A DNA stretch of 64,000 nucleotides, taken from NCBI GenBank assembly GCA_020632555.1, contig JACKFI010000001.1, positions 133,152 to 197,151 of the forward strand, read 5' to 3'. How positions within the stretch are numbered: position 1 is the first letter of the stretch; each line of letters begins with the position of its first letter. The position numbers and the translations under genes were made by a program. The DNA comes from Candidatus Omnitrophota bacterium. GTDB taxonomy: Bacteria > Omnitrophota > Gorgyraeia > Zapsychrales > JANLHA01. Below are positions 25,326 to 39,050 of the stretch, in pieces. Below the pieces are notes generated by a model. The model saw only the letters and a program-made list of their open reading frames with translations. It did no database searches and was not told the origin of the DNA.

Positions 25326-25497
25326 GTGAATTTACGAGCCTGAAAACATCCCTTGATCATTCTTTTCTCATGACTATTAATAGTGGTTTTATTGTCAAAA
25401 GGCGGGATAGAACTATCTTCGATAGGTTCAGGTTATGAAAGGTCTAGCCTGATTCCCAACCTGTTTAATAACAATATGTTGCGTGATGGTCAAAAAA

Positions 25498-25515
25498 ATG
25501 TGCCAGATTTGTGCC
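25498..25515 (-). promoter_or_regulatory. Repeated 18-bp motif copy 1 (minus strand reads GGCACAAATCTGGCACAT; sigma54-like -24/-12 spacing), ~173 bp upstream of the PAS-LuxR gene
   Basis: Identical core at 29995-30012 and 35935-35952. The motif extends to ~37 bp of similarity with copy 2. The GG and GC dinucleotides are 12 nt apart as in TGGCAC-N5-TTGC. Confidence 0.4.
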
Positions 25516-25556
25516 TATCCTAAAGAGCTACTTTTTTTGATGATAAGCCGACCTGA

Positions 25557-26690
25557 TTAAGTGTCCTTCAATGCGTAACTTGTGCTGCGCCCACCCGCGG
25601 TTTCTTTTACTAAAATACCCTTTTCAACAAGATCGAGAATATCGCGCAACGCCGTGTCCTGTGAACACTGGGTGATCTTCGCCCATTTAGAAGAAGTGAG
25701 CTTGCCTTCAAAACCATCAAACAACTTATTGATGATCATCTTCTGCCTCTCGTTAAGGGATTGGGCAGGATGAGATTCCCAAAAACGCGCTTTCTTAAAT
25801 ACACCCGACAAAGTATTTTCAGTTGCATCCAACGCCCGACCCAAACAGCTCAGGAACCACACAAGCCATGGCGTAATATCAATGCCGTCTTTTGTGGCAC
25901 GGTTACTTTTCTGTGTTTTTTCAAGAATATCATAATAGGCATTCCGTTCCTGCCGGATCTGATTCGACATGCTGTAAAAACGCTCCCGGCTGCCGTCGGC
26001 ACGTGCCAGTTGCATATCGGCAATAGCCCGGGCAATTCTTCCGTTACCATCATCAAAAGGATGAAGTGTCACAAACCACAAATGCCCAATACCAGCTTTG
26101 AGCACAGGATCTAAATCCTTTGTGAGCGAAATCGAAGTGTTAAACCATTTCAGAAATTCCTTCATTTCACTTTTAAGACGGTTGGCCTGCGGTGCTTTAT
26201 AATGAACCTTCTCCCGGCCGATAGGACCAGACACAACTCTCATGGGACCATGCTTATCGTCGCGCCAATCAGCCACTGTAATTTTATGCATTCCGCTTCT
26301 ACCGGTTGGGAATAAACTGGCATGCCAGCCAAACATTCGATCCTGCGTAAGGGGCTTGTCAAATTTCTGTGTGGCATCGAGCATCATTTCCACCACTCCA
26401 TCCACATGACGATCAGAAGGCACAAGTCCACCGATGTCCATGCCCAGCCTGCGTGCAATGGATGACCGCACTTTGGCAGGGTCAAGAATCTCACCTTCAA
26501 TTTCACTACTTTTTAAAACATCAAGGGTGAGAGTCTGCAGGATTGCCTCGGAACGCAAAGAAAAACCCAATGCTTCCATTCTTCCAATCAGTCGCCCTTG
26601 GCGATTGCGGACAGTCCCCAAGATAGACGCGACCTTTTCGTGATCCCATGTCAATTTAGGCCAAATGGTTAATTCATGAATGTATTTCAT
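25557..26690 (-). CDS. fic: Fic-family protein (AMPylase/phosphocholine-transferase-type, Fic/DOC)
   Basis: Canonical Fic motif HPFDDGNGRIARA. C-terminal winged-helix-like segment. Confidence 0.88.
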   Translation of the reverse strand: MKYIHELTIWPKLTWDHEKVASILGTVRNRQGRLIGRMEALGFSLRSEAILQTLTLDVLKSSEIEGEILDPAKVRSSIARRLGMDIGGLVPSDRHVDGVVEMMLDATQKFDKPLTQDRMFGWHASLFPTGRSGMHKITVADWRDDKHGPMRVVSGPIGREKVHYKAPQANRLKSEMKEFLKWFNTSISLTKDLDPVLKAGIGHLWFVTLHPFDDGNGRIARAIADMQLARADGSRERFYSMSNQIRQERNAYYDILEKTQKSNRATKDGIDITPWLVWFLSCLGRALDATENTLSGVFKKARFWESHPAQSLNERQKMIINKLFDGFEGKLTSSKWAKITQCSQDTALRDILDLVEKGILVKETAGGRSTSYALKDT

Positions 26691-26720
26691 GGCAAATTCC
26701 TGCGGTGAATAGTCTCATTA

Positions 26721-26765
26721 TTCTACGCATACTATGCGGAGAATATACCATGTTTTCTCCGCATA
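26721..26765. promoter_or_regulatory. Three-half-site operator-like element upstream of fic: TTCTACGCATA-c-TATGCGGAGAA-(11 nt)-TTCTCCGCATA
   Basis: 26733-26743 and 26755-26765 are a perfect 11-bp inverted repeat. 26721-26731 is a 10/11 direct copy of the right arm. Located 31-75 bp upstream of the fic ATG. Confidence 0.5.
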
Positions 26766-26877
26766 CACAAGAGAGATTTAAATCTATATTGCTCCCTACT
26801 AAAAGAAAGCGTCATTGGATATAACGGCTATGTCCAATCATATCCAATTATTGAATCTTTCCATGAGATTTGAAACG

Positions 26878-26895
26878 ATGTGCCGGATTCCTGCC
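26878..26895 (-). promoter_or_regulatory. Degenerate 4th copy of the repeated 18-bp motif (ATGTGCCGGATTCCTGCC, 15/18), ~190 bp upstream of fic, fused to hairpin CCTGCC-TACC-GGCAGG
   Basis: Read directly from the sequence. Same orientation as the other copies. The hairpin core CCTGCCTACCGGCAGGCA recurs at 38564-38581. Confidence 0.3.
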
Positions 26896-26918
26896 TACCG
26901 GCAGGCAGGTGTGCCAAG

Positions 26919-27866
26919 TTATAATCGATCTGAATATTGTGAGATTGTACTTAAAATTTCATCAAACGATATTTGCCCCTGATAATACAATGTTGCAGTT
27001 TTTAGGCACTCCTTCTTAAATTGATCTCTTATCTTCGTATCTTTCAGCAAAAAAGCCTCCTGCTTTGCAATAGGAAACTTTTGATCTGCGACGGGAAATC
27101 TCTTCTTCTTATGCTCGTTGTATTCTGAAGTCCCGATAAACTTCTGAACCGTATCGTTTTGCAAAAGGCAAGCAACATCGTAATAATGCCGGATAAAATT
27201 AGCAGGCATCTTTCCGGACTCTTGCAGTTTCCGAAACTTTGTTGCGATTGTTTGCAATTTCTCAACAAACGTATAACCCAGATGATAGCACAAAACACCA
27301 CCAGCTCTATTATCCTTAACCTTGAGTCCATTCTGCAATGCAAAATCAAGCGCCCAAGAGCTAATATCCATCGGGCTGTTGGGCGTCACCTCATCAAACC
27401 CAACTTCGAGCAATACACCCTCTTTTATGCCGCCGGCAACAGAGAAAGCACTTTTGTAAAAAAGCCGTATTCCACCGCTAAAGAATTTTTCATTATCAAA
27501 TTCCGTGTCACGAATAATTCTTTGTATCCCATCAATATTAATTTTCTTCGCCAACCAGTCATAGTATTTCTTACGGCTTGCACAATGATCTGGTTTTATA
27601 TGGTTTGGACCTGTCTTGACTTCCATGCCGGCAGGCGGTTCGATACGAATATCAATGTCCTCAGAAAATCGATGAATAATGCCATACCCTTTTGAGAGCG
27701 ACGTACCTCCTTTGAGCTCGAAGGTAAATCCCCCTTGTTGCAAACCATATAAAACATGCATGATCCAATAATCTTTTTCAACCAGACTACGCTCTATCTT
27801 TTTTTCATGCTCTACAGCTCGCAAGAGTTCTTTAAATTCAGCGTGGTTATGTAAATAATCAGACAT
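26919..27866 (-). CDS. AbiEii/AbiGii-family nucleotidyltransferase toxin (type IV TA / abortive infection)
   Basis: 315 aa, DUF1814-type nucleotidyltransferase (…GGTSLSKGYGIIHRFSEDIDI…). Overlaps the upstream partner by 8 nt. Confidence 0.8.
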   Translation of the reverse strand: MSDYLHNHAEFKELLRAVEHEKKIERSLVEKDYWIMHVLYGLQQGGFTFELKGGTSLSKGYGIIHRFSEDIDIRIEPPAGMEVKTGPNHIKPDHCASRKKYYDWLAKKINIDGIQRIIRDTEFDNEKFFSGGIRLFYKSAFSVAGGIKEGVLLEVGFDEVTPNSPMDISSWALDFALQNGLKVKDNRAGGVLCYHLGYTFVEKLQTIATKFRKLQESGKMPANFIRHYYDVACLLQNDTVQKFIGTSEYNEHKKKRFPVADQKFPIAKQEAFLLKDTKIRDQFKKECLKTATLYYQGQISFDEILSTISQYSDRL

Positions 27867-28452
27867 GTGCTAAGTTTCCCTCTAACATCCATTGATTAAA
27901 TAAAGTTTTTGTTCTTTCTCCTGCATAAACATTGACCGCGCGCTTCATCTGAGATTCTGGTTCTTTCAGCACTTTTTCCTTAACACTTCGCAAAACACTT
28001 TCCCGATCTTCCGCTAACTCATTTAAATTGTTCAGTAAATCAACCAGTAGAAATTCTTCGGACAATTCTCTGGGGAATTTATGCTTTAATCGAAAATCAA
28101 ACTCCTTTCCACCAAGAACGAATTGACCATGCCGTTTATGATTATAAACAAAGCGCGTATTGTACAACTGCGTAGTTCCCACTCCTAAAGAATTGTAAAG
28201 GTTAGGCGAGGTTAAAAGAAAATCATCGCTTTTTAAGAAGGCCCGTACCAATTTTTCGTCTTCCGGTGGCACAGAGCCAAACGAGGCTTTTGCAGGATAA
28301 TAGTACAATCCCTGTGACATTTTTTGCAAGGTCCCCTCATCAACCAGTTGCTTTAAATGCCGATCAACCGCGGTTGACCATTGCTCCAGATCAACCCTGC
28401 GATAAACCTGTCCCGGTTTTAAATGCCTTTTAAGTTCGCTAAGCGCGTCCAC
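27859..28452 (-). CDS. AbiEi-family antitoxin / transcriptional regulator
   Basis: 197 aa. N-terminal wHTH-like region. Position and size are typical of AbiEi partners of AbiEii. Confidence 0.65.
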   Translation of the reverse strand: MDALSELKRHLKPGQVYRRVDLEQWSTAVDRHLKQLVDEGTLQKMSQGLYYYPAKASFGSVPPEDEKLVRAFLKSDDFLLTSPNLYNSLGVGTTQLYNTRFVYNHKRHGQFVLGGKEFDFRLKHKFPRELSEEFLLVDLLNNLNELAEDRESVLRSVKEKVLKEPESQMKRAVNVYAGERTKTLFNQWMLEGNLAHV

Positions 28453-28568
28453 GTCTTCTGCCTCCTACTTACCTCAAGTATAAAGAGTTTTCTCTAAGAA
28501 TGCAACAATATTAATTTAAAATTCATGCAAATAAAGTGGAAGGACGCACCCAAGATGCTGATATAAAT

Positions 28569-29918
28569 CTAATTGTGATGATTAGCCATCATCCAATCAA
28601 GCACCCCTTTAACACGACGCCAGACAGTAGCCATCTCATGGGCATAATACCGAGCCTCATCCTCTCCGCCCATAGATAAATAATCAGGAATCGCCTTCAA
28701 ACGGAAACCTTTGACAAGATAATTAGGAATAAATTTATTTGTTTTAAAAGCGCGCGCCATCATTTCCCTTGATTGCAACGAATCACCTTCTTTAATAAAC
28801 CACACCAACGCCCTCGTGTAGCACCATGGCGCGGAGCAATCATTCGCATACGGCCCATCCTCCATGAATTGTTCAAGTTCCGCAAATTTCGATCTCTTTG
28901 CCAGATAGCCTGCAAGAACATAGCGCATTCCCTGATTGTCATTCTCATTCAAACACAGCATATCGCGACACACCTCAATCGCTTCGGCATGCTTACCAAG
29001 CTCCCATAAAATTTCCTGAAGTCCAGCCAAAGCGCGCATATACGGCCTTGATTCCAGCAAAGCCCAAAATTGTCCGGCATTCTCTATAAAAAATTTTTGC
29101 CCTAATGCTTCTTTGCCAACCCTAACCCCTTGTAAAAAGTAGGTTGCGGCTTCGTCAAGATACTCTGCTGAATCACCTAAAACAACGTAGGCATCCGTGC
29201 AATTCGGATCAAGATTTAAAGCTTTTTGAGCCAAACCAACACGCTCATCAGAATCAGCCCGCTCCCATGCTTCATAAATCAACTCTTGAGCGATACGTGC
29301 AGGCGACGCATCTGCGAGCTCAGAGGCGGCTTCACCCAATTCTCTTCTTAAGTAAGTCTTCAAATCTTCCTCTTTTGGAATACCCCAAAGAATATTTCTA
29401 AGATCTGGTGGGACCTTGTAACCGTAAAGTGCCGAAAACGTCTCGATCGGAAACCCGTATTTCAGCGCTCCCATGGGCATGCCATTCAATTGAGCGGCTA
29501 CGACGGCCGCAGGATCCTCGTCCTTCTTAGCTTTACTCAGCCACCAGCGGGAATTTAAGACCATCTGGTTCATGGAGGCAAGCACACTGCGATCATTGGC
29601 TTTATCGACGACAATCTCGTCACAGCCTTGCAAAACTTTCTGCATCATTTCACTTGGACAATGCGTATGAAACATAGCACGCGAAAGCCCTTTGTAAAAA
29701 AGTTCACGAAGGTTTTTGAGATCCTTTTTCTTCACTCCCGCGACAAGGAAAGAAAACAGCGTCGATCGATGAGTAAAAAGCAGCTGCTTCTTGTGCTCAT
29801 GATAAAATAAATTCACGAACCATTCTGAAACAGATGGACTATCAGTGTTCAAAGATAAAGACTGAGGCTTGATACCGCTAAACAATAAAAACTTTTGTGT
29901 CCCACGTAAAAGAATCAT
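28569..29918 (-). CDS. Hypothetical protein with C-terminal TPR-like helical repeats
   Basis: 449 aa. No catalytic motif recognised. Preceded at -77 by motif copy 2. Confidence 0.4.
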   Translation of the reverse strand: MILLRGTQKFLLFSGIKPQSLSLNTDSPSVSEWFVNLFYHEHKKQLLFTHRSTLFSFLVAGVKKKDLKNLRELFYKGLSRAMFHTHCPSEMMQKVLQGCDEIVVDKANDRSVLASMNQMVLNSRWWLSKAKKDEDPAAVVAAQLNGMPMGALKYGFPIETFSALYGYKVPPDLRNILWGIPKEEDLKTYLRRELGEAASELADASPARIAQELIYEAWERADSDERVGLAQKALNLDPNCTDAYVVLGDSAEYLDEAATYFLQGVRVGKEALGQKFFIENAGQFWALLESRPYMRALAGLQEILWELGKHAEAIEVCRDMLCLNENDNQGMRYVLAGYLAKRSKFAELEQFMEDGPYANDCSAPWCYTRALVWFIKEGDSLQSREMMARAFKTNKFIPNYLVKGFRLKAIPDYLSMGGEDEARYYAHEMATVWRRVKGVLDWMMANHHN

Positions 29919-29994
29919 TTTTTAATAACCTAACGTTGTTAAATCACCTACAAGCGCCCTCGTTTTGTCATACACTGCGTAATGGTCAATAAAA

Positions 29995-30012
29995 ATGTGC
30001 CAGATTTGTGCC
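29995..30012 (-). promoter_or_regulatory. Repeated 18-bp motif copy 2 (GGCACAAATCTGGCACAT on the minus strand), 77 bp upstream of the 449-aa TPR protein gene
   Basis: 37-bp stretch 29975-30012 matches 25479-25515 with 2 mismatches. Confidence 0.4.
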
Positions 30013-30017
30013 ACATG

Positions 30018-30443
30018 CTATATGAGTTTTTCCATTTTTTCTATAGCAGCATAGTAAATACTCAAAAACTTATCTTTTATTGTAAAAAGCTCGTCCATCA
30101 TTTTTTCAGAATGGGACTTATTCTCATATTCAAAAGGATAAAACCGAATACCCTTTTTATAAAATCCGCCTTCATAATTAATTTGAAAAAAATAATCTCG
30201 GTCAACAAGAGATCGATGCTTACTCAAGTTACAAAAACTCCTCACGTAGCCAAACTCATCTGAGTCAATCCATTCTCCTATAGCATTCTCTAAATCCGGA
30301 GCGATACCTTTCAATTGTTTACTCACTTTATAAATTGTAACTTTGCTTCGGGGCAGCGTAGAAGATAGGATTACCATATTGATTACCTGTGCGCAAATAT
30401 CAGGAGCCAAAGAGAATATTTCCAAACGTGCCATATTCAGCAC
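30018..30443 (-). CDS. Hypothetical protein
   Basis: 141 aa, no recognisable domain. Alternative Met start 3 codons in (MARLEIF). Confidence 0.35.
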   Translation of the reverse strand: MLNMARLEIFSLAPDICAQVINMVILSSTLPRSKVTIYKVSKQLKGIAPDLENAIGEWIDSDEFGYVRSFCNLSKHRSLVDRDYFFQINYEGGFYKKGIRFYPFEYENKSHSEKMMDELFTIKDKFLSIYYAAIEKMEKLI

Positions 30444-30546
30444 AAACCTGCCGAAGGACGAGCAAGTCCGCCAGAAGCAAATGAACCCGACACTCCTGGA
30501 AATGTTCTCTTTTACTCTCTTTTGAGTTTCTTTAGAATTTTATTTT

Positions 30547-31560
30547 TCATATTGAAACGTGGCATTGCCCATTGCCAAGATCAACAAAATTAATTTTAAC
30601 ATCCATGAACTTCTCAATAATCTCGGCATTGGTAAGGCTGTGCAGCGTCAGGGCCGTAGTTTTAAATTCTCCACCTTTGGCCAAAGCAAACGGGATCAAA
30701 AGCTGATCAGCCAAATACGTCCCCACCGGAGCATCGATTTGTAAATATTTCTTTACTTGTTCAATGGCTTCATGCGCTACTGCTTCCGCGCTTTTACGCA
30801 ATTCTCCGAAACCCACAAACATTTCCCTGATATTTTCACTATCAACCTCAACCGTAAAAATATTTCCCGGACCTTGAGAATCCATGGCTTGAAAAATCTC
30901 ACTTTGATCATCTTCCAGAGAAAAATGTTTTTTAGCGACCGCGATTTCTCTGACAGCAACATTGCCAGGGATTTGGGCAAAGAGTGATCTTGCCTTTATG
31001 CCTTTAAGTTTGCCGCGCTCTAACAAAAATATGGGTTTTAATTTCTTTATAGGCACAATTTTAGCTTCGATCTTTCCGCCGCCGGCCGGGTAAAAACCGT
31101 GGCGATGCAAAGTCACTTCTAAATCCACACCCATTTGTTTGAGAATCGGCGCAAAAACTATTTTTAAAAAATCCACCGGGGGTGCGAAAGGATTATGCGT
31201 TCCTCCTTCGATCACAATTATGGATGGTGAGTCCGCGATCATCAAAGCCGGTAAAATGGTTTGCAAAACAAGAGTCGCGCTACCCGCCGTCCCAACTGAA
31301 AAATGGTATTCCCCTGCGGTGACTTCTCCCGGATAGAAAGTCAGCTTTTGCGAGCCGATAACATTCCCATCGACCTTTGCATCTCCAATCTTCGTAGCTG
31401 CTTCGACAGCCGTTAAATGCTGGCGTAAAAGCCCCGGCTTACTACGCTTAGCGCGGATATTCTCAATCGTAAACGGCTCGCCCGTTACTAAGGACAACCC
31501 GAGAGCTGTCCTTAGTATTTGGCCCCCGCCTTCACCGATTGAACCGTCGATTTTAATCAT
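30547..31560 (-). CDS. rtcA: RNA 3'-terminal phosphate cyclase
   Basis: 337 aa. N-terminus IDGSIGEGGGQILRTALGLSLVTGEPFTIENIRAKRSKPGL is diagnostic of RtcA. Confidence 0.88.
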   Translation of the reverse strand: MIKIDGSIGEGGGQILRTALGLSLVTGEPFTIENIRAKRSKPGLLRQHLTAVEAATKIGDAKVDGNVIGSQKLTFYPGEVTAGEYHFSVGTAGSATLVLQTILPALMIADSPSIIVIEGGTHNPFAPPVDFLKIVFAPILKQMGVDLEVTLHRHGFYPAGGGKIEAKIVPIKKLKPIFLLERGKLKGIKARSLFAQIPGNVAVREIAVAKKHFSLEDDQSEIFQAMDSQGPGNIFTVEVDSENIREMFVGFGELRKSAEAVAHEAIEQVKKYLQIDAPVGTYLADQLLIPFALAKGGEFKTTALTLHSLTNAEIIEKFMDVKINFVDLGNGQCHVSI

Positions 31561-32306
31561 TTGACCTCTTTGGTTCTCACCGGAACGACTTGACCCGATA
31601 CTCCTAAGACAATCGTACTTCCCGGTGATTGTAAAGCTCGCAATTGCAATAACGCAGGATTGTCTTCCAACACTTTAGAAACATTGGCCAAATTGCGCAA
31701 AGACGCGGTTTCTCCGCGGGCACGTTCCAATGCCGCCAACCCTTCTTTTTGCGCCTCAACAACCTTAGCAAAGATTTTCTTTAATTCACCCGGAAACATA
31801 ACGTCCTTAACGCCGATGAGCGTAATTTTTAAACCGATTTCCTTCGCTTTGGCAACCGTCGCTTCCATCAACTTTTGATTAATCGTTGCTCGCTGTGCCA
31901 AAACCTCATCGATCGCTAAAGAGCCAATGATGTCACGAACTGCCAATTGTACCACCGCGTATAAAGCCTCGGTGTAACTAGCGATCTTATTAACGGCGAT
32001 GTTGGCATCTTCGATCTCATATTGCGCCGTAATGCTGACCTTTAAGGACACATTGTCCGAACTTAAGACTTCCTGCCCCGGGATCGTGATGACTCGAGGA
32101 CGAACATCGATCTTAACGATGATCGTATTCTGAGAAAACTTAAAATAACGACCCGGTTCCAAAATTCCGACAAATTTTCCCTTGCGATATTTTAAACCCT
32201 TCTCATATTCAAGAATAGTGACAAAATATTTTGCACTAAAAACCGCAATGACGACCCAACCGATAAAGCCGAGCACCGCCATGCTTACTAATGTTGATAA
32301 TGTCAT
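31557..32306 (-). CDS. SPFH/band-7 (stomatin/slipin-like) membrane protein inserted between rtcB and rtcA
   Basis: N-terminal TM followed by an SPFH domain and a coiled-coil-like tail (…QKEGLAALERARGETAS…). Overlaps rtcA by 4 nt. Confidence 0.8.
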   Translation of the reverse strand: MTLSTLVSMAVLGFIGWVVIAVFSAKYFVTILEYEKGLKYRKGKFVGILEPGRYFKFSQNTIIVKIDVRPRVITIPGQEVLSSDNVSLKVSITAQYEIEDANIAVNKIASYTEALYAVVQLAVRDIIGSLAIDEVLAQRATINQKLMEATVAKAKEIGLKITLIGVKDVMFPGELKKIFAKVVEAQKEGLAALERARGETASLRNLANVSKVLEDNPALLQLRALQSPGSTIVLGVSGQVVPVRTKEVK

Positions 32307-32602
32307 TTCTTTCTCCTTTTGTTTTTAAAAGTTCTGTCTTAAAAAAATTGTAGAATCGCAGTGGAGGTTGTTGACCTGCAAGACGGCTTTTCTACGAGCA
32401 ACTTTCTTAAGACAGAACGTGGGGATTTGAACCCCTCGGATTACTCCTTGACCAGGGCGAGCGTTTATCTGCAAAATGATATGGCCGATGCCATGTCATC
32501 GCACTGGATTCGCTCGCATATTTTTTTATCCCAATTTTTGCTAAAGGATTTTGCTTTTGGTAAATTGGGATTACGCAAATTTTTTCTATCGAAAATCTGC
32601 CT

Positions 32603-34120
32603 TTAAGCTGCTCCTTTTAAACTTTTATCTTCATCTTTAATAACAAACCGCGCTTTTAACTTTGCCACAGGACTCGCCAGCCCGGCGCTCTCGATTGATC
32701 TCAAAACTTCTTTGAAATCTTTATAAGCCGCAGGGGCTTCATCCAAAGGATATTGCCGGCAATTAGACAGAATGTCATTGTCTTTGAAACTCTGGTCGAC
32801 TTCCTGTTGGACCAAAGTTCTCATCGCCGCCTTCCGTCCCAACGCACGACCAGCGCCGTGATTAACGCTGTAACAACTTTTTTCTGCGCCCGGATCAGCA
32901 ACCATAACAACCGAGCCATCTTTAGGATTACCCGGAAGCAAAATCGGATGTCCGGTATCAGCAAACAAAGTGTCCTTTAATGCAAAGTGTCCCGCCGGGA
33001 AAGCCCGCGTCGCCCCTTTGCGGTGGACCCAGACTTTTTGATTGTCCACCACTTCCTGCCGGGCAATGTTATGGCTGATAAAATAAACCAACTGCCCTTT
33101 TGTTCCAGGAACCACCTCTTGAAACGCTTCTAAAACCAAAGCATTGATTAACAGATGATTGATCGTCGCAAAATTAGCGCCCAAGGCCATGTCATTCAAG
33201 TAGGCATCTGCTTCGGGCGTTCCCAAGGGCGCATACACCAACTCCTTATCCTCGCCCGGCAATGGAATATCCCAAACCGAGAATTTATTTTGCAAGGTCT
33301 TGAATTGATGCTGCGCTAAATGATAACCAAAACCGCGCGAACCGCAATGCGAGAGAAAGGCTACCTTGTTATCTTGAAGCCCAAAGACTTCGGCCACCTT
33401 CTTGGCGCGCTCATCATTCTCGATTTCAACAACTTCGCATTCTCCAAAGTGATTTCCACCACCATAAGAACCCAATTGCGAAATCTTTTTCTCAAAATTA
33501 TCGAACAATCCCGTATCGATCAAAAATTGCAATCTTTGACCTAAGGCATCGGCTGTTCCATCATGCCCGACGTGAAAAGCATCTTCGCAACGCAAAGCCC
33601 AATCCACAGGAATGCCTAATTGCTCGCAGACCGAAGCCGAAGCACCCTGGATAGCGACTTGTTTACCCAGGATTTCATTGACCCGTCTCGCCTTCTTAAC
33701 TGAACGCTGCCCCTGCCCCGCACCCGTCGGGGTTCTTTCAAGGATCGCGTTAATTAAAGCCCGACGGGTGCTTTGATCAATGACGGCATTTGCCGGCAAA
33801 TCCATTTGCAATAAACTCATCGAACACTTAATGTCCACACCAACCGGACCAGGATATATATGAGTAGGTGACACCAGAACACAACCAACCGGTGCGCCGT
33901 ACCCGCAGTGAGCATCTGGGTTCAATACTAAATCGGTAACCCCGGGAGCGCCGCGAGAATTTAAAGCTTGTTGAATACAAAGGTCATCAAAAGTTTTTCT
34001 GATCGCCTCGGTTCCAATCACCGTGATTGGTTTTCCTTCACTATTATGCATAGGAAGAAAACCCGTTGCTTCCCCGGTGGCATGAATTCTTGAAGTTGAT
34101 TCGTTCGTTTGTTCTGACAT
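32603..34120 (-). CDS. rtcB: RNA-splicing ligase RtcB (3'-phosphate/5'-OH RNA ligase)
   Basis: 505 aa. Conserved RtcB metal-binding/GTP motifs (…YGGGNHFGECEV…, …HGAGR…). Confidence 0.88.
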   Translation of the reverse strand: MSEQTNESTSRIHATGEATGFLPMHNSEGKPITVIGTEAIRKTFDDLCIQQALNSRGAPGVTDLVLNPDAHCGYGAPVGCVLVSPTHIYPGPVGVDIKCSMSLLQMDLPANAVIDQSTRRALINAILERTPTGAGQGQRSVKKARRVNEILGKQVAIQGASASVCEQLGIPVDWALRCEDAFHVGHDGTADALGQRLQFLIDTGLFDNFEKKISQLGSYGGGNHFGECEVVEIENDERAKKVAEVFGLQDNKVAFLSHCGSRGFGYHLAQHQFKTLQNKFSVWDIPLPGEDKELVYAPLGTPEADAYLNDMALGANFATINHLLINALVLEAFQEVVPGTKGQLVYFISHNIARQEVVDNQKVWVHRKGATRAFPAGHFALKDTLFADTGHPILLPGNPKDGSVVMVADPGAEKSCYSVNHGAGRALGRKAAMRTLVQQEVDQSFKDNDILSNCRQYPLDEAPAAYKDFKEVLRSIESAGLASPVAKLKARFVIKDEDKSLKGAA

Positions 34121-34243
34121 TTGTTTTTCCCTTATATTGCCCCTTTCCTTTATCGTTGCTTAAAGCATACCCTATCCAAAGCCAAATGTCAAATTTATTT
34201 TTATTTTCTTGTATAAATGTTTATCCTGTGATATATTTATACC

Positions 34244-35842
34244 ATGAATACAAAAATTGCTATTGGGCTACTTGGGACAACCCTCGATCAAGGGAAAGAT
34301 GAAAATCGCTGGAACAAGTGGCGTCCGACCATCTCCCTTTTTCAGCACGAAGACCTCTTGATCCATCGTTTTGACTTGCTATACGAAAAAAAATTTCAAG
34401 ATCTTGCCGAGCAAGTTATTTCTGACATCAAATCCATCTCCCCTGAAACCAGAGTTGTGCCCCACATTATTGAAGTGAAAGACGCGTGGGATTTTGAGAA
34501 TATGTACAGCGTCCTTTTTGACTTTGCCCGCAATTATCCTTTTAATATAGAGAAAGAAGAATATCTCATCCACATCACCACCGGATCGCACGTAGCGCAA
34601 ATTTGTGAATTTCTTTTAACTGAAAGCCGATACTTCCCAGCTAAACTCATCCAGACCTCCCCTTCCAAAACCGAAGGCTTTAAAGGCGAATACCGCATCA
34701 TTGATCTTGACCTTTCTAAGTACGACAACATCGTCAAGCGATTCCGTAAAGAACAAAGAGAAAATTTATCATTTCTTAAATCCGGGATAGCGACTCGCAA
34801 TAGTAAATATAATCGGCTCATTGAACAAATCGAACGCGCGACGATCAACTCTAATGCCCCGCTTCTTCTCACCGGCCCGACCGGTGCCGGAAAATCACAT
34901 CTTGCCCGACAAATTTTTGAACTCAAAAAGATTCACAACCAAATCAAAGGCCAATTTATCGAAGTCAACTGCGCGACTCTGCGCGGAGAAATGTCGGCCT
35001 CCACCCTTTTTGGGCATGTCAAAGGAGCATTTAACTGCGCCATCAAAGACCGAATGGGATTATTACGCGAAGCCAATGAAGGGGTTTTATTTCTCGACGA
35101 GATTGGAGAATTAGGGATCGATGAGCAAGCCATGCTTCTTAAAGCATTGGAAGAACAAAAATTCTTGCCCATCGGCAGCGACGAGGAAGTTGAAAGTAAA
35201 TTTCAGTTAATTGCCGGGACGAATTTAGACCTTGGCATTGAAGTTGATAAAGGCAATTTTCGCACCGACCTCTACTCCCGAATCAATCTTTGGACATTCT
35301 CATTGCCTTCTCTTAAGGACCGTCCTGAAGATATCGATGCCAACATTGAATTTGAATTAGAAAAGTTTTCACAAACACACAATATCAACGCCACCATCAA
35401 TAAAGAAGCCAAAGATGCCTATTTGAAATTTGCGACATCAGAGAAAGCATTATGGAAAGCGAACTTCCGTGACTTGAATGCCTCCATCATTCGCATGACC
35501 ACATTAGCCGACGGCGGGAGAATCAATATTGAACTTGTGCAGGAAGAAATTGACCGGTTAAATAAACTTTGGAAGAGAAGCGAAGATACTCAAGAAGCGG
35601 AGATACTCGAACGTTTACTAACTCAAGAACAACTGCAAAAGCTAGACCGGATTGAAAAAATCCAATTGATTGAAGTTATAAAGATTTGCCGCGAATCACG
35701 CAACCTGTCTGAAGCCGGCCGCATTTTATACAATGCTTCCCGCACACTCAAATCAAGCACCAATGACGCCGATCGACTTAAAAAACTTCTCGCCCGCCAC
35801 GATCTATCCTGGGACCAAATTAAAAACGCTTCCGTACTATGA
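34244..35842 (+). CDS. rtcR: RtcR: CARF-domain sigma54-type enhancer-binding transcriptional regulator
   Basis: 532 aa. N-terminal CARF-like domain (~180 aa), AAA+ sigma54-interaction domain (Walker A GPTGAGKS, Walker B VLFLDEIGEL), C-terminal Fis-type HTH. The GAFTGA loop reads GAFNCA. Confidence 0.85.
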   Translation: MNTKIAIGLLGTTLDQGKDENRWNKWRPTISLFQHEDLLIHRFDLLYEKKFQDLAEQVISDIKSISPETRVVPHIIEVKDAWDFENMYSVLFDFARNYPFNIEKEEYLIHITTGSHVAQICEFLLTESRYFPAKLIQTSPSKTEGFKGEYRIIDLDLSKYDNIVKRFRKEQRENLSFLKSGIATRNSKYNRLIEQIERATINSNAPLLLTGPTGAGKSHLARQIFELKKIHNQIKGQFIEVNCATLRGEMSASTLFGHVKGAFNCAIKDRMGLLREANEGVLFLDEIGELGIDEQAMLLKALEEQKFLPIGSDEEVESKFQLIAGTNLDLGIEVDKGNFRTDLYSRINLWTFSLPSLKDRPEDIDANIEFELEKFSQTHNINATINKEAKDAYLKFATSEKALWKANFRDLNASIIRMTTLADGGRINIELVQEEIDRLNKLWKRSEDTQEAEILERLLTQEQLQKLDRIEKIQLIEVIKICRESRNLSEAGRILYNASRTLKSSTNDADRLKKLLARHDLSWDQIKNASVL

Positions 35843-35934
35843 TCAATCCCTAATTTAATCATCCGTGATAGTTTATTTGAGAATTTATTGTAACCCCAAG
35901 AAGTGGCGTCAGGGGGGATTTTTGGTGCCAAAAC

Positions 35935-35952
35935 ATGTGCCAGATTTGTGCC
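35935..35952 (-). promoter_or_regulatory. Repeated 18-bp motif copy 3 (GGCACAAATCTGGCACAT on the minus strand), between rtcR 3' end and the HEPN gene
   Basis: Core identical to copies 1 and 2. The flank also carries a TGGTGCC variant. No obvious downstream minus-strand gene (would be antisense to rtcR). Confidence 0.3.
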
Positions 35953-35976
35953 ATAGCAAAATGCCATCTTTTTGTA

Positions 35977-36384
35977 TCACTTTCCCATCATCTCTCTGAC
36001 CCATTGATAAACCCGGGTAGTCACCTTGACCATTTCATCAGCATCGGCTCGATTAACACTACGGCATTCATACTGGATCACATTCTTTCGGGCAATGATT
36101 TTGCGTAATTGCTTGGCTTTTTCAGCAGCGCCATCAATCGGCAATTTTGAAACCAGCTCACAGACATCCAAGTGATCTTGGGAAATTGACCGAACACCTT
36201 TTTCATTCACACAAATCGCATCCGCCGAAGAAATCGCACATTGCAATGCCAACGTTGCCGCGGCGTTCCAATTCTCAGCATGAAAAGCAATGAGCATTTG
36301 ATCGTAATTGTCCGATGCCTTTTTCAGATATTCACTAGCGGCAGATTTGCTCTCTTCTCTCACCTTCATTTCACGCGCTGTCAC
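35977..36384 (-). CDS. HEPN-domain protein (toxin of a HEPN/MNT pair)
   Basis: 135 aa, all-helical. R-x5-H-like motif (VRSISQDH). Directly downstream (1-nt gap) of the MNT gene. Confidence 0.6.
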   Translation of the reverse strand: MTAREMKVREESKSAASEYLKKASDNYDQMLIAFHAENWNAAATLALQCAISSADAICVNEKGVRSISQDHLDVCELVSKLPIDGAAEKAKQLRKIIARKNVIQYECRSVNRADADEMVKVTTRVYQWVREMMGK

Positions 36385-36385
36385 A

Positions 36386-37015
36386 TCACACCTCCAAAGG
36401 TTCTTTTCCGTATAAAACTGAATAGGATTTCATTAATGTTGATATCGGCGGAAGATTCTTTTTAAGACGTTCACGAAATTCAGCCGCTGACTTTACATAA
36501 AAATCCAAATGAATACCAAAATATGACTTAAACCGATCCGCAATGCTTGAATTAAAAACCTCCGCAACCTGCTTCGTATGGCTTGCCTTATCGACAACAA
36601 CGGCCACATCAACATCGCTTTTTTTATTTGCTGTACCTTGCTGAACACTTCCATAAAGGATCAAAGAAACAATATCCGTCTTGATCCCGCCTTTCTTTAT
36701 CTCCTCCAAGAGCAGATCGCGGATCTCTCCCTTATAATTACTCTCCGCCTCGAACATCGGGCGAATAATTTTTTGAACGATGCGGTCCTCTTCATTCAAA
36801 GAATAGATATGCTGTTTTCCGATGACTTCGACATTAAGAATATTGTGTGCCTGAAGATTCTTTAATGATTCGTGGGTAGCAGGCACAGAAAAACCAGACA
36901 ATTTAGCAATCTCGCGGCCCGTGGCTCTTAATCCTTTACGGATAGTCAGAACACGCAGGATGGCCACCGCTGACTGCGTCCCAACAATTTCACTGATTTG
37001 GAAAGGAGAATCCAT
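36386..37015 (-). CDS. Nucleotidyltransferase (MNT-type antitoxin) with N-terminal winged-helix DNA-binding domain
   Basis: N-terminal wHTH (…GREIAKLSGFSVPATHESLKNLQAHNIL…). C-terminal Pol-beta NTase motif (LYGSVQQGTANKKSDVDVAVVVD). Confidence 0.7.
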   Translation of the reverse strand: MDSPFQISEIVGTQSAVAILRVLTIRKGLRATGREIAKLSGFSVPATHESLKNLQAHNILNVEVIGKQHIYSLNEEDRIVQKIIRPMFEAESNYKGEIRDLLLEEIKKGGIKTDIVSLILYGSVQQGTANKKSDVDVAVVVDKASHTKQVAEVFNSSIADRFKSYFGIHLDFYVKSAAEFRERLKKNLPPISTLMKSYSVLYGKEPLEV

Positions 37016-37022
37016 AAACTTT

Positions 37023-37057
37023 ACCTAACATATGTAAGGTTAACCTAACACGTAAAG
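37023..37057. promoter_or_regulatory. Near-palindrome ACCTAACATATGTAAGGT plus direct repeat TAACCTAACACGTAAAG just upstream of the MNT/HEPN operon
   Basis: 16/18 palindrome centred on CATATG, 8 nt from the MNT start codon. Plausibly the auto-operator of the wHTH-MNT protein. Confidence 0.3.
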
Positions 37058-37149
37058 TATAACATTGTTTCCAGAACTGTCAAATTTATACTGCTCCACG
37101 GTGATATACCGTATTGTGTGTAAATTAACTGTCATCCCCGAAATTTTTT

Positions 37150-38545
37150 ATCGGGGAACCATTTAAAAGTAGTAAAAAAAGGCGTATCTTTCTGTTTGGA
37201 AATGTTTAACCGGGTTGACCCATGTCAGCCCAGAACAGAAAGGATACGCCCATGTACCAAACATTTGATACTTTAAAACATCGCGGAGCCGGGTCAAGGA
37301 TTTCATTAATTATACCCAACCGAAAGATTTTTGGATCGATATTAATATGCATCTTAGAAAACTAACCAAAAGTTTTATTGAAGAAACTCTCGACGAAGAA
37401 ATGACCCAATATCAACAACGAGAAAAACATCAGCGGTTAAAGAAAATGATCGATTACCGAAACGGACATTATCAACGCAACCTCGATACGACCATCGGCC
37501 CTCTTGATAATATTGCCGTTCCGCGTTCACGAAGCGGACTATTTAAACCTACGGTTTTTAAGCGTTACCAAAGACGCCAAGAAGCTGTTAACACCGTCAT
37601 CTGCAATGCCTTCCTGCGCGGCATATCCACCCGTGAAGTCGCTGGCGCTTTAAAACCAATCCTTGACACCAACATCTCCGCTTCCGCCGTCTCACGAATA
37701 ACAAAATCTTTAAATGCCCAAGTTAAAGCATTCCATCAACGTCAACTGCTCGACGAATATCAGTTTTTATTCCTAGACGGTATTGCTATCTCAGTCAAAG
37801 GAGCGCTTAAAGCCAAGAAAATTCTTGTCCTAACTGCTTATGGCATTACGATCTTCGGTAAAAAAGAGCTCATCGCCTTTAGAATCTCTAACAGCGAGTC
37901 AAATCAAGCCTGCGAAGGATTTTTAAATGATCTATTTAAACGCGGCCTGCAAGGCAAAAACCTTAAATTGATTATCACCGACGGGTCCAAAGGCTTTATT
38001 AACGCCGTCGACCTCGTTTACCCTCACGTCAAACATCAGCGCTGCTGGGTTCATAAACTTCGTAATTGCACTAAACATCTTAAGAAATGCGATATTGATG
38101 CATTTAAAAATGATGCCCGCAAGATTTACAATGCCTCGACTCATCGAGATGCTGTCGCGGCTTTTAAGAGTTTACGCCAACATTGGGTCAAAGATTATCC
38201 GCAAGTTGTCAAACTCATCGAACAGGATTTAGATAGTCTTTTGGCTTTTTTAGAAATTCCAATCAAGGAACAATACCGCGAATTTATCCGTCGTCGAATT
38301 CGTACAACCAACATCATCGAGCGTTCATTCCGGGAAATCAGACGCCGCACCAGACCCATGGGATGTTTTGCAAATATTGATAGCGTCAGCAGGATTATTT
38401 ATGCGATATTTAATCGCTTAAACACCAAATGGCAGGAGAAACCTTTAACCCAATTTACACAATTTATTTGACATTACCGCAAATTGAAAGGTGCGGTTAA
38501 AACAAGAAAACCCCGTCTCTCCTCGACGGAAAACAGGGTTTTATA
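37150..38545 (+). mobile_element. IS256-family insertion sequence (boundaries approximate; terminal inverted repeats not resolved)
   Basis: The transposase CDS has ~190 bp of upstream and ~70 bp of downstream non-coding flank. A 16-bp-stem long hairpin (GGCGTATCTTTCTGTT…AACAGAAAGGATACGCC) lies at 37196-37257. Confidence 0.4.
37347..38471 (+). CDS. tnp: IS256-family (Mutator-type) transposase
   Basis: 374 aa. Typical IS256 transposase N-terminus (…IEETLDEEMTQYQQREKHQRLKKMIDYRNGHYQRNLDT…) and DDE core. Confidence 0.85.
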   Translation: MHLRKLTKSFIEETLDEEMTQYQQREKHQRLKKMIDYRNGHYQRNLDTTIGPLDNIAVPRSRSGLFKPTVFKRYQRRQEAVNTVICNAFLRGISTREVAGALKPILDTNISASAVSRITKSLNAQVKAFHQRQLLDEYQFLFLDGIAISVKGALKAKKILVLTAYGITIFGKKELIAFRISNSESNQACEGFLNDLFKRGLQGKNLKLIITDGSKGFINAVDLVYPHVKHQRCWVHKLRNCTKHLKKCDIDAFKNDARKIYNASTHRDAVAAFKSLRQHWVKDYPQVVKLIEQDLDSLLAFLEIPIKEQYREFIRRRIRTTNIIERSFREIRRRTRPMGCFANIDSVSRIIYAIFNRLNTKWQEKPLTQFTQFI

Positions 38546-38548
38546 TTG

Positions 38549-38562
38549 GTTGCGGGGACAGG
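38549..38562 (-). repeat. 14-nt direct copy (TTGCGGGGACAGGA) of the tRNA-Met 3' end, att-like
   Basis: Exact match to 38731-38744 (tRNA acceptor/T-stem 3' strand), ~170 bp downstream of the tRNA 3' end. Confidence 0.45.
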
Positions 38563-38695
38563 ACCTGCCTACCGGCAGGCAAGTTTGAATGGTTTCGCGG
38601 CTTCGCTTACGCTCAACCATTTCCTCGCCTAACGGCTCGGTCACCTGCGCTCGCTTTCGCTCGCTGCACGTCCATTCACCCATCCCACTAATAAA

Positions 38696-38725
38696 TTAAG
38701 AAGGCCCCAATTGGGGCCTTCTTAA
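38696..38725. terminator. Perfect 13-bp-arm palindromic hairpin TTAAGAAGGCCCC-AATT-GGGGCCTTCTTAA immediately 3' of tRNA-Met
   Basis: Read directly from the sequence. GC-rich stem flanked by A/T runs on both sides (bidirectional terminator-like). Confidence 0.55.
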
Positions 38726-38730
38726 TTTAA

Positions 38731-38804
<74 letters not shown>

Positions 38805-38834
38805 GCTATTCTTAGTAATAATATCTTGAGGTAG

Positions 38835-39050
38835 CCGCGGCACTTCCTCGGGTATTAAGCGTCTGTCGGCCTCGCCACGGTGGGCTCGGCACTCCTTCGC
38901 ACTTTACGTGCTCAGTCGCCCGCTTTGGTACTAAATACATCTTAATATAACGGCGGCACTTCCTCGGGCATTAAGCGTCTGTCGGCCTCGCCACGGTGGG
39001 CTCGGCACTCCTTCGCACTTTACGTGCTCAGTCGCCCGCTTTGGTACTAA
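38835..39050. repeat. 2 x 100-bp near-identical GC-rich tandem repeat (16-bp spacer) between tRNA-Met and the ftsB-eno operon
   Basis: 38835-38934 and 38951-39050 differ at 2 positions. Unit: CGGCACTTCCTCGGG(T/C)ATTAAGCGTCTGTCGGCCTCGCCACGGTGGGCTCGGCACTCCTTCGCACTTTACGTGCTCAGTCGCCCGCTTTGGTACTAA. Confidence 0.6.

Follow-up and report, generated by a model that had tools for sequence, protein, structure and literature searches.

An RtcR regulator with an asparagine in its GAFTGA loop beside a predicted sigma-70-type rtc promoter in Omnitrophota

Sigma-54 and sigma-70 transcription are activated in mechanistically different ways. In Escherichia coli and Salmonella, the regulator RtcR is encoded divergently from the operon (rsr-yrlBA-rtcBA) that contains the RNA-repair genes rtcB and rtcA, and the E. 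coli locus shows both a GAFTGA loop in the AAA+ domain of the regulator and a -24/-12 promoter ahead of the operon. This work compares that arrangement with a divergent RNA-repair locus, formed by rtcR on the + strand and an rtcB-SPFH-rtcA operon on the - strand, in a 64,000-nt stretch of DNA from Candidatus Omnitrophota bacterium (contig JACKFI010000001.1; the whole stretch is called here the window, and its positions are the coordinates used below). In contrast to E. coli, the loop reads GAFNCA in the window and GAFNGA in its closest relatives, and the operon is preceded by a promoter of predicted sigma-70 type. The probable explanation, although far from a certain one, is that an atypical, sigma-54-independent RtcR controls a sigma-70 promoter, and that regulator and promoter jointly left the sigma-54 system. 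The RtcR loci used for comparison are labelled L001-L099 (L016 being E. coli), and the proteins carry labels with P, such as P0003.

The threonine of GAFTGA contacts region I of sigma-54 (PMC4005640, PMC3467059). Related to this, the PspF variant T86A hydrolyses ATP and no longer engages sigma-54 (PMC4005640), and T86pBpa shows 0% sigma-54 interaction together with 146% ATPase activity (PMC3467059). Natural homologues with a defective GAFTGA have also been described: TyrR, DhaR, HupR, PhhR, VpsR, NtrX and the NtrC proteins of Rhodobacter (R. capsulatus) and Caulobacter belong to the AAA+ family of sigma-54 activators, are sigma-70-dependent, act at sigma-70-type promoters and in some cases keep nucleotide binding (PMC3162934, PMC6158489, bioRxiv 10.1101/2023.06.06.543975). 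HsfA is a further member of this group. Both kinds of protein differ from the RtcR described here. In the atypical proteins, which form other orthologous groups, the loop is deleted or wholly replaced and Walker B is often altered, whereas the RtcR of this clade shows a single-residue change in an otherwise canonical protein, that can be compared with sigma-54-type orthologues at 70% identity. The PspF variants concern the same threonine; however, they are engineered loss-of-function changes with no new promoter, whereas the substitution in RtcR is natural, fixed and paired with a predicted change of promoter class.

The GAFTGA position of RtcR

The window protein matches the NCBIfam equivalog NF038308 over its full length with 755 bits (cutoff 650), and the Pfam families RtcR (PF06956) and Sigma54_activat (PF00158) are found at residues 4-181 and 184-350, respectively. 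It is 55% identical to E. coli RtcR and has the same three domains as the E. coli and Salmonella proteins. The near-invariant helix-turn-helix (HTH) carries the motif NDADRL at residues 507-512. The gene and its motifs are located as follows:

34244..35842, + strand: rtcR, 532 residues, with a CARF-like N-terminal domain, an AAA+ domain and a C-terminal HTH
34874..34897, + strand: Walker A, GPTGAGKS, intact
35024..35041, + strand: L1 loop codons GAFNCA (residues 261-266) at the GAFTGA position, with Thr264 replaced by Asn and Gly265 by Cys
35087..35113, + strand: Walker B, LFLDEIGEL, intact (D285, E286)

Residues 255-268 read LFGHVKGAFNCAIK, and the sigma-54-contacting L1 loop is LFGHVKGAFNCAIKD. 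An earlier reading of this DNA from its letters (the original prediction) had reported GAFNCA in the place of GAFTGA and had given GAFTGA as the canonical loop; the first statement agrees with the codons listed above, and the second is correct, as E. coli RtcR in NC_000913 carries GAFTGA.

The loop was compared among the best 120 database homologues and in an alignment of 124 sequences including the E. coli protein from that genome. The 120 homologues carry GAFTGA, GSFTGA or GAYTGA, and once GAFTSA, the exceptions being the two closest ones (97% and 89% identity), in which the loop is GAFNGA. The same GAFNGA is present in two contigs of metagenome-assembled genomes at 93% identity, L001 (labelled Planctomycetales) and L002 (labelled Omnitrophota). 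The resulting Asn-loop clade has five members, namely the window, L014, L001, L002 and L015, and the other four all have GAFNGA. Outside this clade, the Thr is present in 119/119 sequences of the alignment and the next Gly in 118/119; the Thr is also found in all 74 of 74 further RtcR loci from metagenomes, and no Asn at this position was detected among 150 representatives of 50%-identity clusters, whose loops were read by motif-anchored extraction. Besides, the Asn loop is not shared by any RtcR with a known or predicted sigma-54 promoter. As a correction to the original prediction, the trait of the lineage is Thr-to-Asn; the additional Gly-to-Cys (GGC to TGC) is private to the window. A sigma-54 activator is expected to have GAFTGA with Thr (or Ser) at the fourth position, and neither GAFNCA nor GAFNGA agrees with it, although the intact ATPase motifs also expected of such an activator are present; a sigma-54-activator homologue with a defective GAFTGA is the mark of the atypical enhancer-binding proteins, and the window RtcR has it.

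The Asn substitution was seen in five independent assemblies, written as AAC in three genomes and as AAT in two, with the frame of 532 residues intact in all of them. Within the clade, the pairwise ratio of nonsynonymous to synonymous substitutions (dN/dS) of rtcR is 0.014-0.047, at synonymous divergences (dS) from 0.34 to above 4, which means saturation. The arginine-finger region of the window protein reads FRTDLYSR/RINLW, and there is no clade-specific change in the columns of Walker A, Walker B or FRxDLYxR/RINLW. As judged from these comparisons, the loop substitution is lineage-specific and maintained by selection, and the low dN/dS at saturated dS, the intact Walker motifs and the use of both Asn codons argue that the Asn-loop variant is functional and old. 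With respect to the window alone, four substitutions are private to it when it is set against four concordant relatives, and two of them (G265C and T267I) fall in the L1 loop (Poisson P ~0.004); this clustering hints at a relaxed or shifted constraint on the loop in the window lineage.

Promoters and palindrome in the rtcB-rtcR gap

The elements of the gap, together with the first gene of the operon, are the following:

32603..34120, - strand: rtcB, first gene of the operon, 505 residues
34121-34243: gap between rtcB and rtcR, 123 bp
34157, - strand: predicted rtcB transcription start, read from the sequence; the base is A in all five genomes and follows the -10 by 7 nt
34164..34169, - strand: -10 hexamer TATGCT, 17 nt after the -35 (TAAGCT in L015)
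34187..34192, - strand: TTGACA, -35 hexamer of the rtcB promoter (predicted sigma-70 type), the same in every Asn-loop genome
34193..34211: A/T-rich tract ATTTATTTTTATTTTCTTG (+ strand) between the divergent promoters, conserved, putatively UP-element-like for the rtcB promoter
34212..34225: palindrome TATAAATGTTTATC of the GATAA-N4-TTATC type, putative RtcR box, centred at about -61.5 relative to the predicted rtcB start and at -25.5 relative to the rtcR ATG
34229..34237, + strand: extended -10 of the rtcR promoter, TGATATATT, ending 6-7 nt before the ATG

The TTGACA-17-TATGCT promoter had been proposed on the minus strand of the 123-bp gap by the original prediction, and it is indeed there, with a match of 10/12 to the sigma-70 consensus and a predicted leader of 37 nt that contains an AAGGGA Shine-Dalgarno-like element. 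Matches of at least 9/12 occur 2.2 times per 1.1 kb in a shuffled AT-rich stretch, so a promoter of this kind is not rare alone, and what makes it significant is that five genomes have kept it while their synonymous sites became saturated. When the five are aligned, the -35 does not vary, the -10 keeps T-A-x-G-C-T and the length of the spacer is fixed, whereas only 8/17 nt of the spacer sequence are identical between the window and L015. To judge by the alignment, hexamers that are kept while the spacer between them diverges are the footprint expected of a selected sigma-70-type promoter. Sigma-70-like elements of at least 10/12 in the sense of the operon were found in 0/72 Thr-loop loci vs 4/5 Asn-loop loci; the fifth Asn-loop locus has TTGACA-17-TAAGCT, and the offset of the promoter from the rtcR ATG is identical in all five.

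The search for promoters of the -24/-12 type covered the 400 nt before and the 300 nt after rtcR; both the GG and the GC had to be present, and 12 positions were scored. Positive controls scored 11-12/12, and the E. coli promoter, TGGCACGACGGTTGCA, reached 12/12. Among the Thr-loop loci, 47/73 have an element of at least 10/12 and 59/73 one of at least 9/12, nearly all of them divergent from rtcR; on the other hand, the Asn-loop loci give 7-8/12 at best, or no candidate. The gap itself was said to lack any in-phase GG-N10-GC, which is not the case: one exists, GGGTATGCTTTAAGCA (34157..34172, - strand), the only one in the gap. It was rejected as a sigma-54 promoter, as it scores 7/12 and its GC is lost in L001, L002 and L015. 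No conserved -24/-12 element lies upstream of rtcB and none exceeds 7-8/12, and TTGACA-17-TAWGCT is conserved only in the Asn-loop clade. The combination of a -35/-10 promoter with a nearby regulator site, typical of the atypical enhancer-binding proteins, is present by prediction only, with the centre of the box at about -61.5.

The nearest Thr-loop relatives, both metagenomic, are L008 (P0003, 73% identity) and L009 (P0004, 70%). They share with the clade the gene order (rtcR divergent from rtcB-SPFH-rtcA, with Ro60 in some cases ahead of rtcB), the AT-rich type of genome, a leaderless-looking rtcR start and the conserved RNA after rtcB. The difference lies in the loop, which is still GAFTGA, and in the promoters, TGGCACGcttcTGGCT and TGGCACGgtttTGGCT, which are textbook -24/-12 elements of the TGGCACG-N4-TGGCT type at ~143 nt from the box; the sequences upstream of the operon in these two loci are TGGCACGCTTCTGGCT and TGGCACGGTTTTGGCT. 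The intergenic region measures 187-205 bp in L008 and L009 vs 123 bp in the window; roughly 80 bp have been lost. It is a matter of speculation that the spacer sequence TTTGGC/TTTGGATA could be a collapsed remnant of an ancestral TGGCAC...TGGCT promoter and that TTGAGG in L008 could represent a proto -35. Set against its nearest relatives, the Asn clade looks like a natural switch between two ways of starting transcription, and the loops and promoters of these relatives lend support to the view, already put forward for this locus, that the logic of rtcBA control differs from the E. coli paradigm.

The palindrome was surveyed in 79 RtcR loci (L001-L096, with E. coli as L016). In the 70 nt ahead of rtcR, 40 of the 79 loci, from many phyla, have a sequence of the form [GT]ATA-N6-TAT[CA], with a background expectation of 0.0013 per 70 nt and hence an enrichment of ~380-fold. 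The E. coli palindrome is GATAATGAAATATC, and the same type beside rtcR is one of the likenesses between that locus and the window; members of the clade have identical half-sites and differ in the centre. The RtcR loci without GATAA-N4-TTATC seem to have another variant, such as ...GATAAGCTAGC...TTAGAGATTATTC. Because the palindrome is conserved and the HTH of RtcR is near-invariant, it is probably the RtcR box, and a candidate for a universal one. The literature searched yielded no description of the sequence that RtcR binds.

The position of this box relative to the promoter separates the two groups of loci. From its centre to the predicted sigma-54 start there is a median of 143.5 nt (range 98.5-156.5), a normal enhancer distance, with 131.5 nt in E. 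coli; the distance to the predicted sigma-70 start in the Asn clade is 61.5 nt. Between the box and the -35 there is no indel across the saturated divergence of the clade.

On the other side of the box, the extended -10 of rtcR has the general form TGnTATATT (TGGTATAAT in L015), and the same geometry is seen in L001, L002, L014, L015, L008 and L009. There is no Shine-Dalgarno sequence at the rtcR start, and the rtcR mRNA is probably leaderless. The shorter palindrome GATATATTTATA at 34230-34241, a possible second site for RtcR, was not counted because it falls on the extended -10 of rtcR.

The operon, its structured RNA and the surrounding island

The remaining features of the operon are:

30547..31560, - strand: rtcA (RNA 3'-phosphate cyclase)
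31557..32306, - strand: SPFH/band-7 gene, inserted between rtcB and rtcA
32327-32521, - strand: conserved structured RNA of ~195 nt between rtcB and the SPFH gene, found by alignment

The divergent layout of regulator and operon, with RtcB and RtcA, is shared with E. coli and Salmonella, and rtcR is divergent from the rtcB/rtcA operon in the window and in all members of the Asn clade. The SPFH gene and the structured RNA between rtcB and rtcA distinguish the window from E. coli; an SPFH gene in this place is common to the Asn-loop clade, L008 and L009 (the order was seen in L008, L009, L014 and L015), and absent from E. coli. At 31557-31560, rtcA shares 4 nt with the SPFH gene (ATGA-type coupling).

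The structured RNA is also found in L014, L001, L015 and L009. Its consensus folding (RNAalifold) gives -62.7 kcal/mol with compensatory changes at 9 pairs, and it combines a long hairpin (GTTCTGTCTTAAG...CTTAAGACAGAAC) with a tRNA-like module, the T-arm of which is GGGGTTCAAATCCCC. A search of the window with Rfam for YrlA or Y RNA gave no match at E <= 0.1. The RNA nevertheless resembles a divergent YrlA/Y RNA and may be described as Y-RNA-like, although the window has no Ro60 gene. A bona fide YrlA lies at 3838-4242 of L008 (Rfam RF02553, 71 bits). The Ro60 gene has been lost altogether from the window, L014, L001 and L002; in L015 (6302-7844 and 5850-6302) it is split into two open reading frames of 207 and 294 residues, possibly in decay, and is followed by three tRNA-like repeats.

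The rtc locus is placed inside a variable island (~25400-38810) beside a tRNA-Met gene (38731-38804, - strand), and the flanks are not alike among the window, L014, L001 and L002. The other contents of the island, and a repeat next to it, are as follows:

25557-26690: Fic/DOC, a cassette of toxin-antitoxin/defence type
26919-28452: AbiEii and DUF6088, of the same type
28569-29918: DUF6933, of the same type
35977-37015: HEPN and nucleotidyltransferase genes, of the same type
37347-38471: IS256/Mutator-type transposase
38813-39044: two tandem GC-rich copies of 116 nt, 91% identical, directly upstream of tRNA-Met

Comparable GC-rich sequence of GCGA/GGAG type precedes partial tRNA copies at 38541-38700 and in L001.

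The borders of the cassettes also carry a repeated 19-mer, TGGCACAAATCTGGCACAT, on the gene strand, with 3 copies in the window, 4 in L001 and 5 in L002. Its long form measures ~110 nt and has the 3' 42 nt of tRNA-Met behind it, in a manner resembling an att junction. The 19-mer was considered as a sign of sigma-54 use and rejected, as the whole 19-mer is conserved, spacer included, and reads as two tandem 11-mers. The copies are:

35935-35953, 29995-30013 and 25498-25516, - strand: 19-mer in the window
229, 5596, 11618 and 17616: 19-mer in L001
4205, 5517, 11814, 15332 and 17604: 19-mer in L002

Control of the operon and significance for the RtcR family

If RtcR and the promoter have indeed passed to the sigma-70 system, the housekeeping (sigma-70-type) holoenzyme would transcribe the rtc operon from near 34157, and RtcR would still bind the conserved palindromic box at 34212-34225. 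The loss of ~80 bp of the ancestral spacer between enhancer and promoter would have shifted this box from about -143 to about -61.5, a position from which RtcR may modulate a sigma-70 promoter as TyrR/PhhR and Rhodobacter NtrC do. The most likely mode would be activation upon ligand-induced oligomerisation, with repression as the other possibility. By analogy with Salmonella RtcR, whose signal is of this nature (PMC7790460), the CARF-like domain would probably sense tRNA fragments that end in 2',3'-cyclic phosphate. The same box, at -25.5 of the extended -10 leaderless promoter of rtcR, would serve for the autorepression of the regulator. An independent parallel to this arrangement is P0134 (L097), a diverged protein with a destroyed loop, encoded divergently from rtcB and without a -24/-12 promoter.

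Several points weigh against this proposal. Because the five genomes share ancestry, they represent one evolutionary event, and the association of loop and promoter is a single co-occurrence that counts once and not five times. The effect of Thr-to-Asn on sigma-54 contact, as opposed to that of Thr-to-Ala, was not found in the available literature, and the G-A-F-x-G-A frame is still kept in 4/5 members of the clade, which is unexpected for a functionless loop. It is by conservation only that the palindrome is taken for the RtcR box. Motif scans of six-frame translations of the window, L001, L002, L014 and L015 gave no RpoN box and no activator besides RtcR, in 127 kb of clade sequence, which is too little to infer the absence of rpoN from the genomes. 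Finally, with its consensus -35, 17-nt spacer and A-tract, the rtcB promoter has the look of an intrinsically strong one, so that constitutive or repressed expression would fit it at least equally well.

The last point leads to the main rival, less probable than the proposal above and still deserving attention, in which a strong sigma-70 promoter drives the operon constitutively, rtcBA is no longer under RtcR control and the regulator has been retained for other purposes (autoregulation, unlinked genes, or RNA binding and ATPase activity). A consensus -35 with an optimal spacer and an UP-like A-tract should need no activator, autoregulation alone could explain the conservation of a palindrome that overlaps the promoter of rtcR itself, and degenerate-loop proteins of the RtcR family encoded beside unrelated genes (MMPL, HIT/HNH) point to other possible jobs. 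However, rtcR and the operon remain divergently linked in all five genomes despite rearranged flanks, with Ro60 lost or present; the distance between box and -35 has been held without indels; and the signal-sensing and ATPase modules are all under strong purifying selection.

A more specific mechanism, rather doubtful at present, would have the Asn-loop RtcR work from -61.5 on the sigma-70 holoenzyme as an ATP-dependent AAA+ ring, with the still-conserved GAF-N-GA loop repurposed as a new contact surface and Thr-to-Asn as the key step. If this were true, the clade and its 70%-identical sigma-54-type sisters would form a natural before-and-after pair for a change of sigma class.

It is unlikely that RtcR still depends on sigma-54, with the Asn being tolerated, perhaps by a co-adapted sigma-54, at a cryptic or non-canonical -24/-12 element, because no such element is conserved. 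The G-A-F-x-G-A frame and the ATPase motifs, which are conserved, would agree with continued dependence, as would TGGCACAAATCTGGCA at 35953..35938 (- strand), a sigma-54-like 16-mer present in the window, L001 and L002; it lies just 3' of rtcR and is directed toward rtcB from 1.8 kb upstream, and the TGGC at the -12 of this copy resembles the promoters of L008 and L009. Nevertheless, L014 and L015 retain the Asn loop and the sigma-70 promoter and have no copy, next to rtcR, of the 19-mer to which it belongs; this 19-mer is a dispersed repeat of cassette borders, often fused to partial tRNA-Met, most of whose copies have no gene start downstream. Besides, the region upstream of rtcB scores no higher than 7-8/12, and functional sigma-54 activators show no residue other than Thr (or Ser) in this place of the loop. 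The least credible explanation is an incipient pseudogene, or an error of sequencing or assembly that affects the loop: the occurrence of Gly-to-Cys in a single sequence and the two window-unique residues in the L1 loop, with their possible relaxed constraint, speak for it, but error is largely excluded for Thr-to-Asn by the five independent assemblies and two codons, and the intact frame in all five together with a dN/dS of at most 0.05 contradicts decay.

Departure from GAFTGA is wider in the family than in this clade. Degenerate L1 loops were found in P0134, P0138, P0140, P0186, P0193, P0232, P0262 and P0264, for which RtcR is the best-matching family and in which the loop has departed from G[AS][FY]TGA; a search of representatives gave GAFPGA with a change in Walker B, GRFTHV, SHLGVAGT and outright deletions. 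In contrast to the Asn-loop RtcR, these proteins are far more diverged and fall below the RtcR equivalog cutoff, several of them with an altered Walker A or B. The neighbours of such genes are rtcB near a Cas3 gene in L097, an MMPL transporter in L098, and HIT and HNH genes in L099. Escape from sigma-54 seems to have been repeated in the RtcR family, to judge by these loops, with the present clade as the mildest case. No description of a sigma-70-type RtcR, or of sigma-54 escape in this family, was found in the literature searched.

To our knowledge, the crossing of an activator between sigma classes has so far been inferred only from old cases with much divergence, for example TyrR, NtrX, Rhodobacter NtrC and VpsR. 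In the present case, one orthologous regulator and its operon would occur in both states among close relatives, with proteins that differ essentially by one loop residue and with a promoter region that has been visibly remodelled, the -24/-12 element and ~80 bp of spacer being gone and a predicted -35/-10 promoter standing beside the same box. This gives a small system in which it could be tested what minimal changes turn an enhancer-dependent switch into a conventional one, and whether the induction of RNA repair by damaged tRNA has been preserved. For annotation, the labels "RtcR" and "sigma-54-interacting regulator" would be no guarantee of sigma-54 dependence, given that several lineages of the family have degenerate loops. 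The Asn-loop clade may thus serve as a clean, naturally occurring model of how an activator changes its sigma-factor class, and RtcR may be added to the atypical enhancer-binding-protein systems of sigma-70 type.

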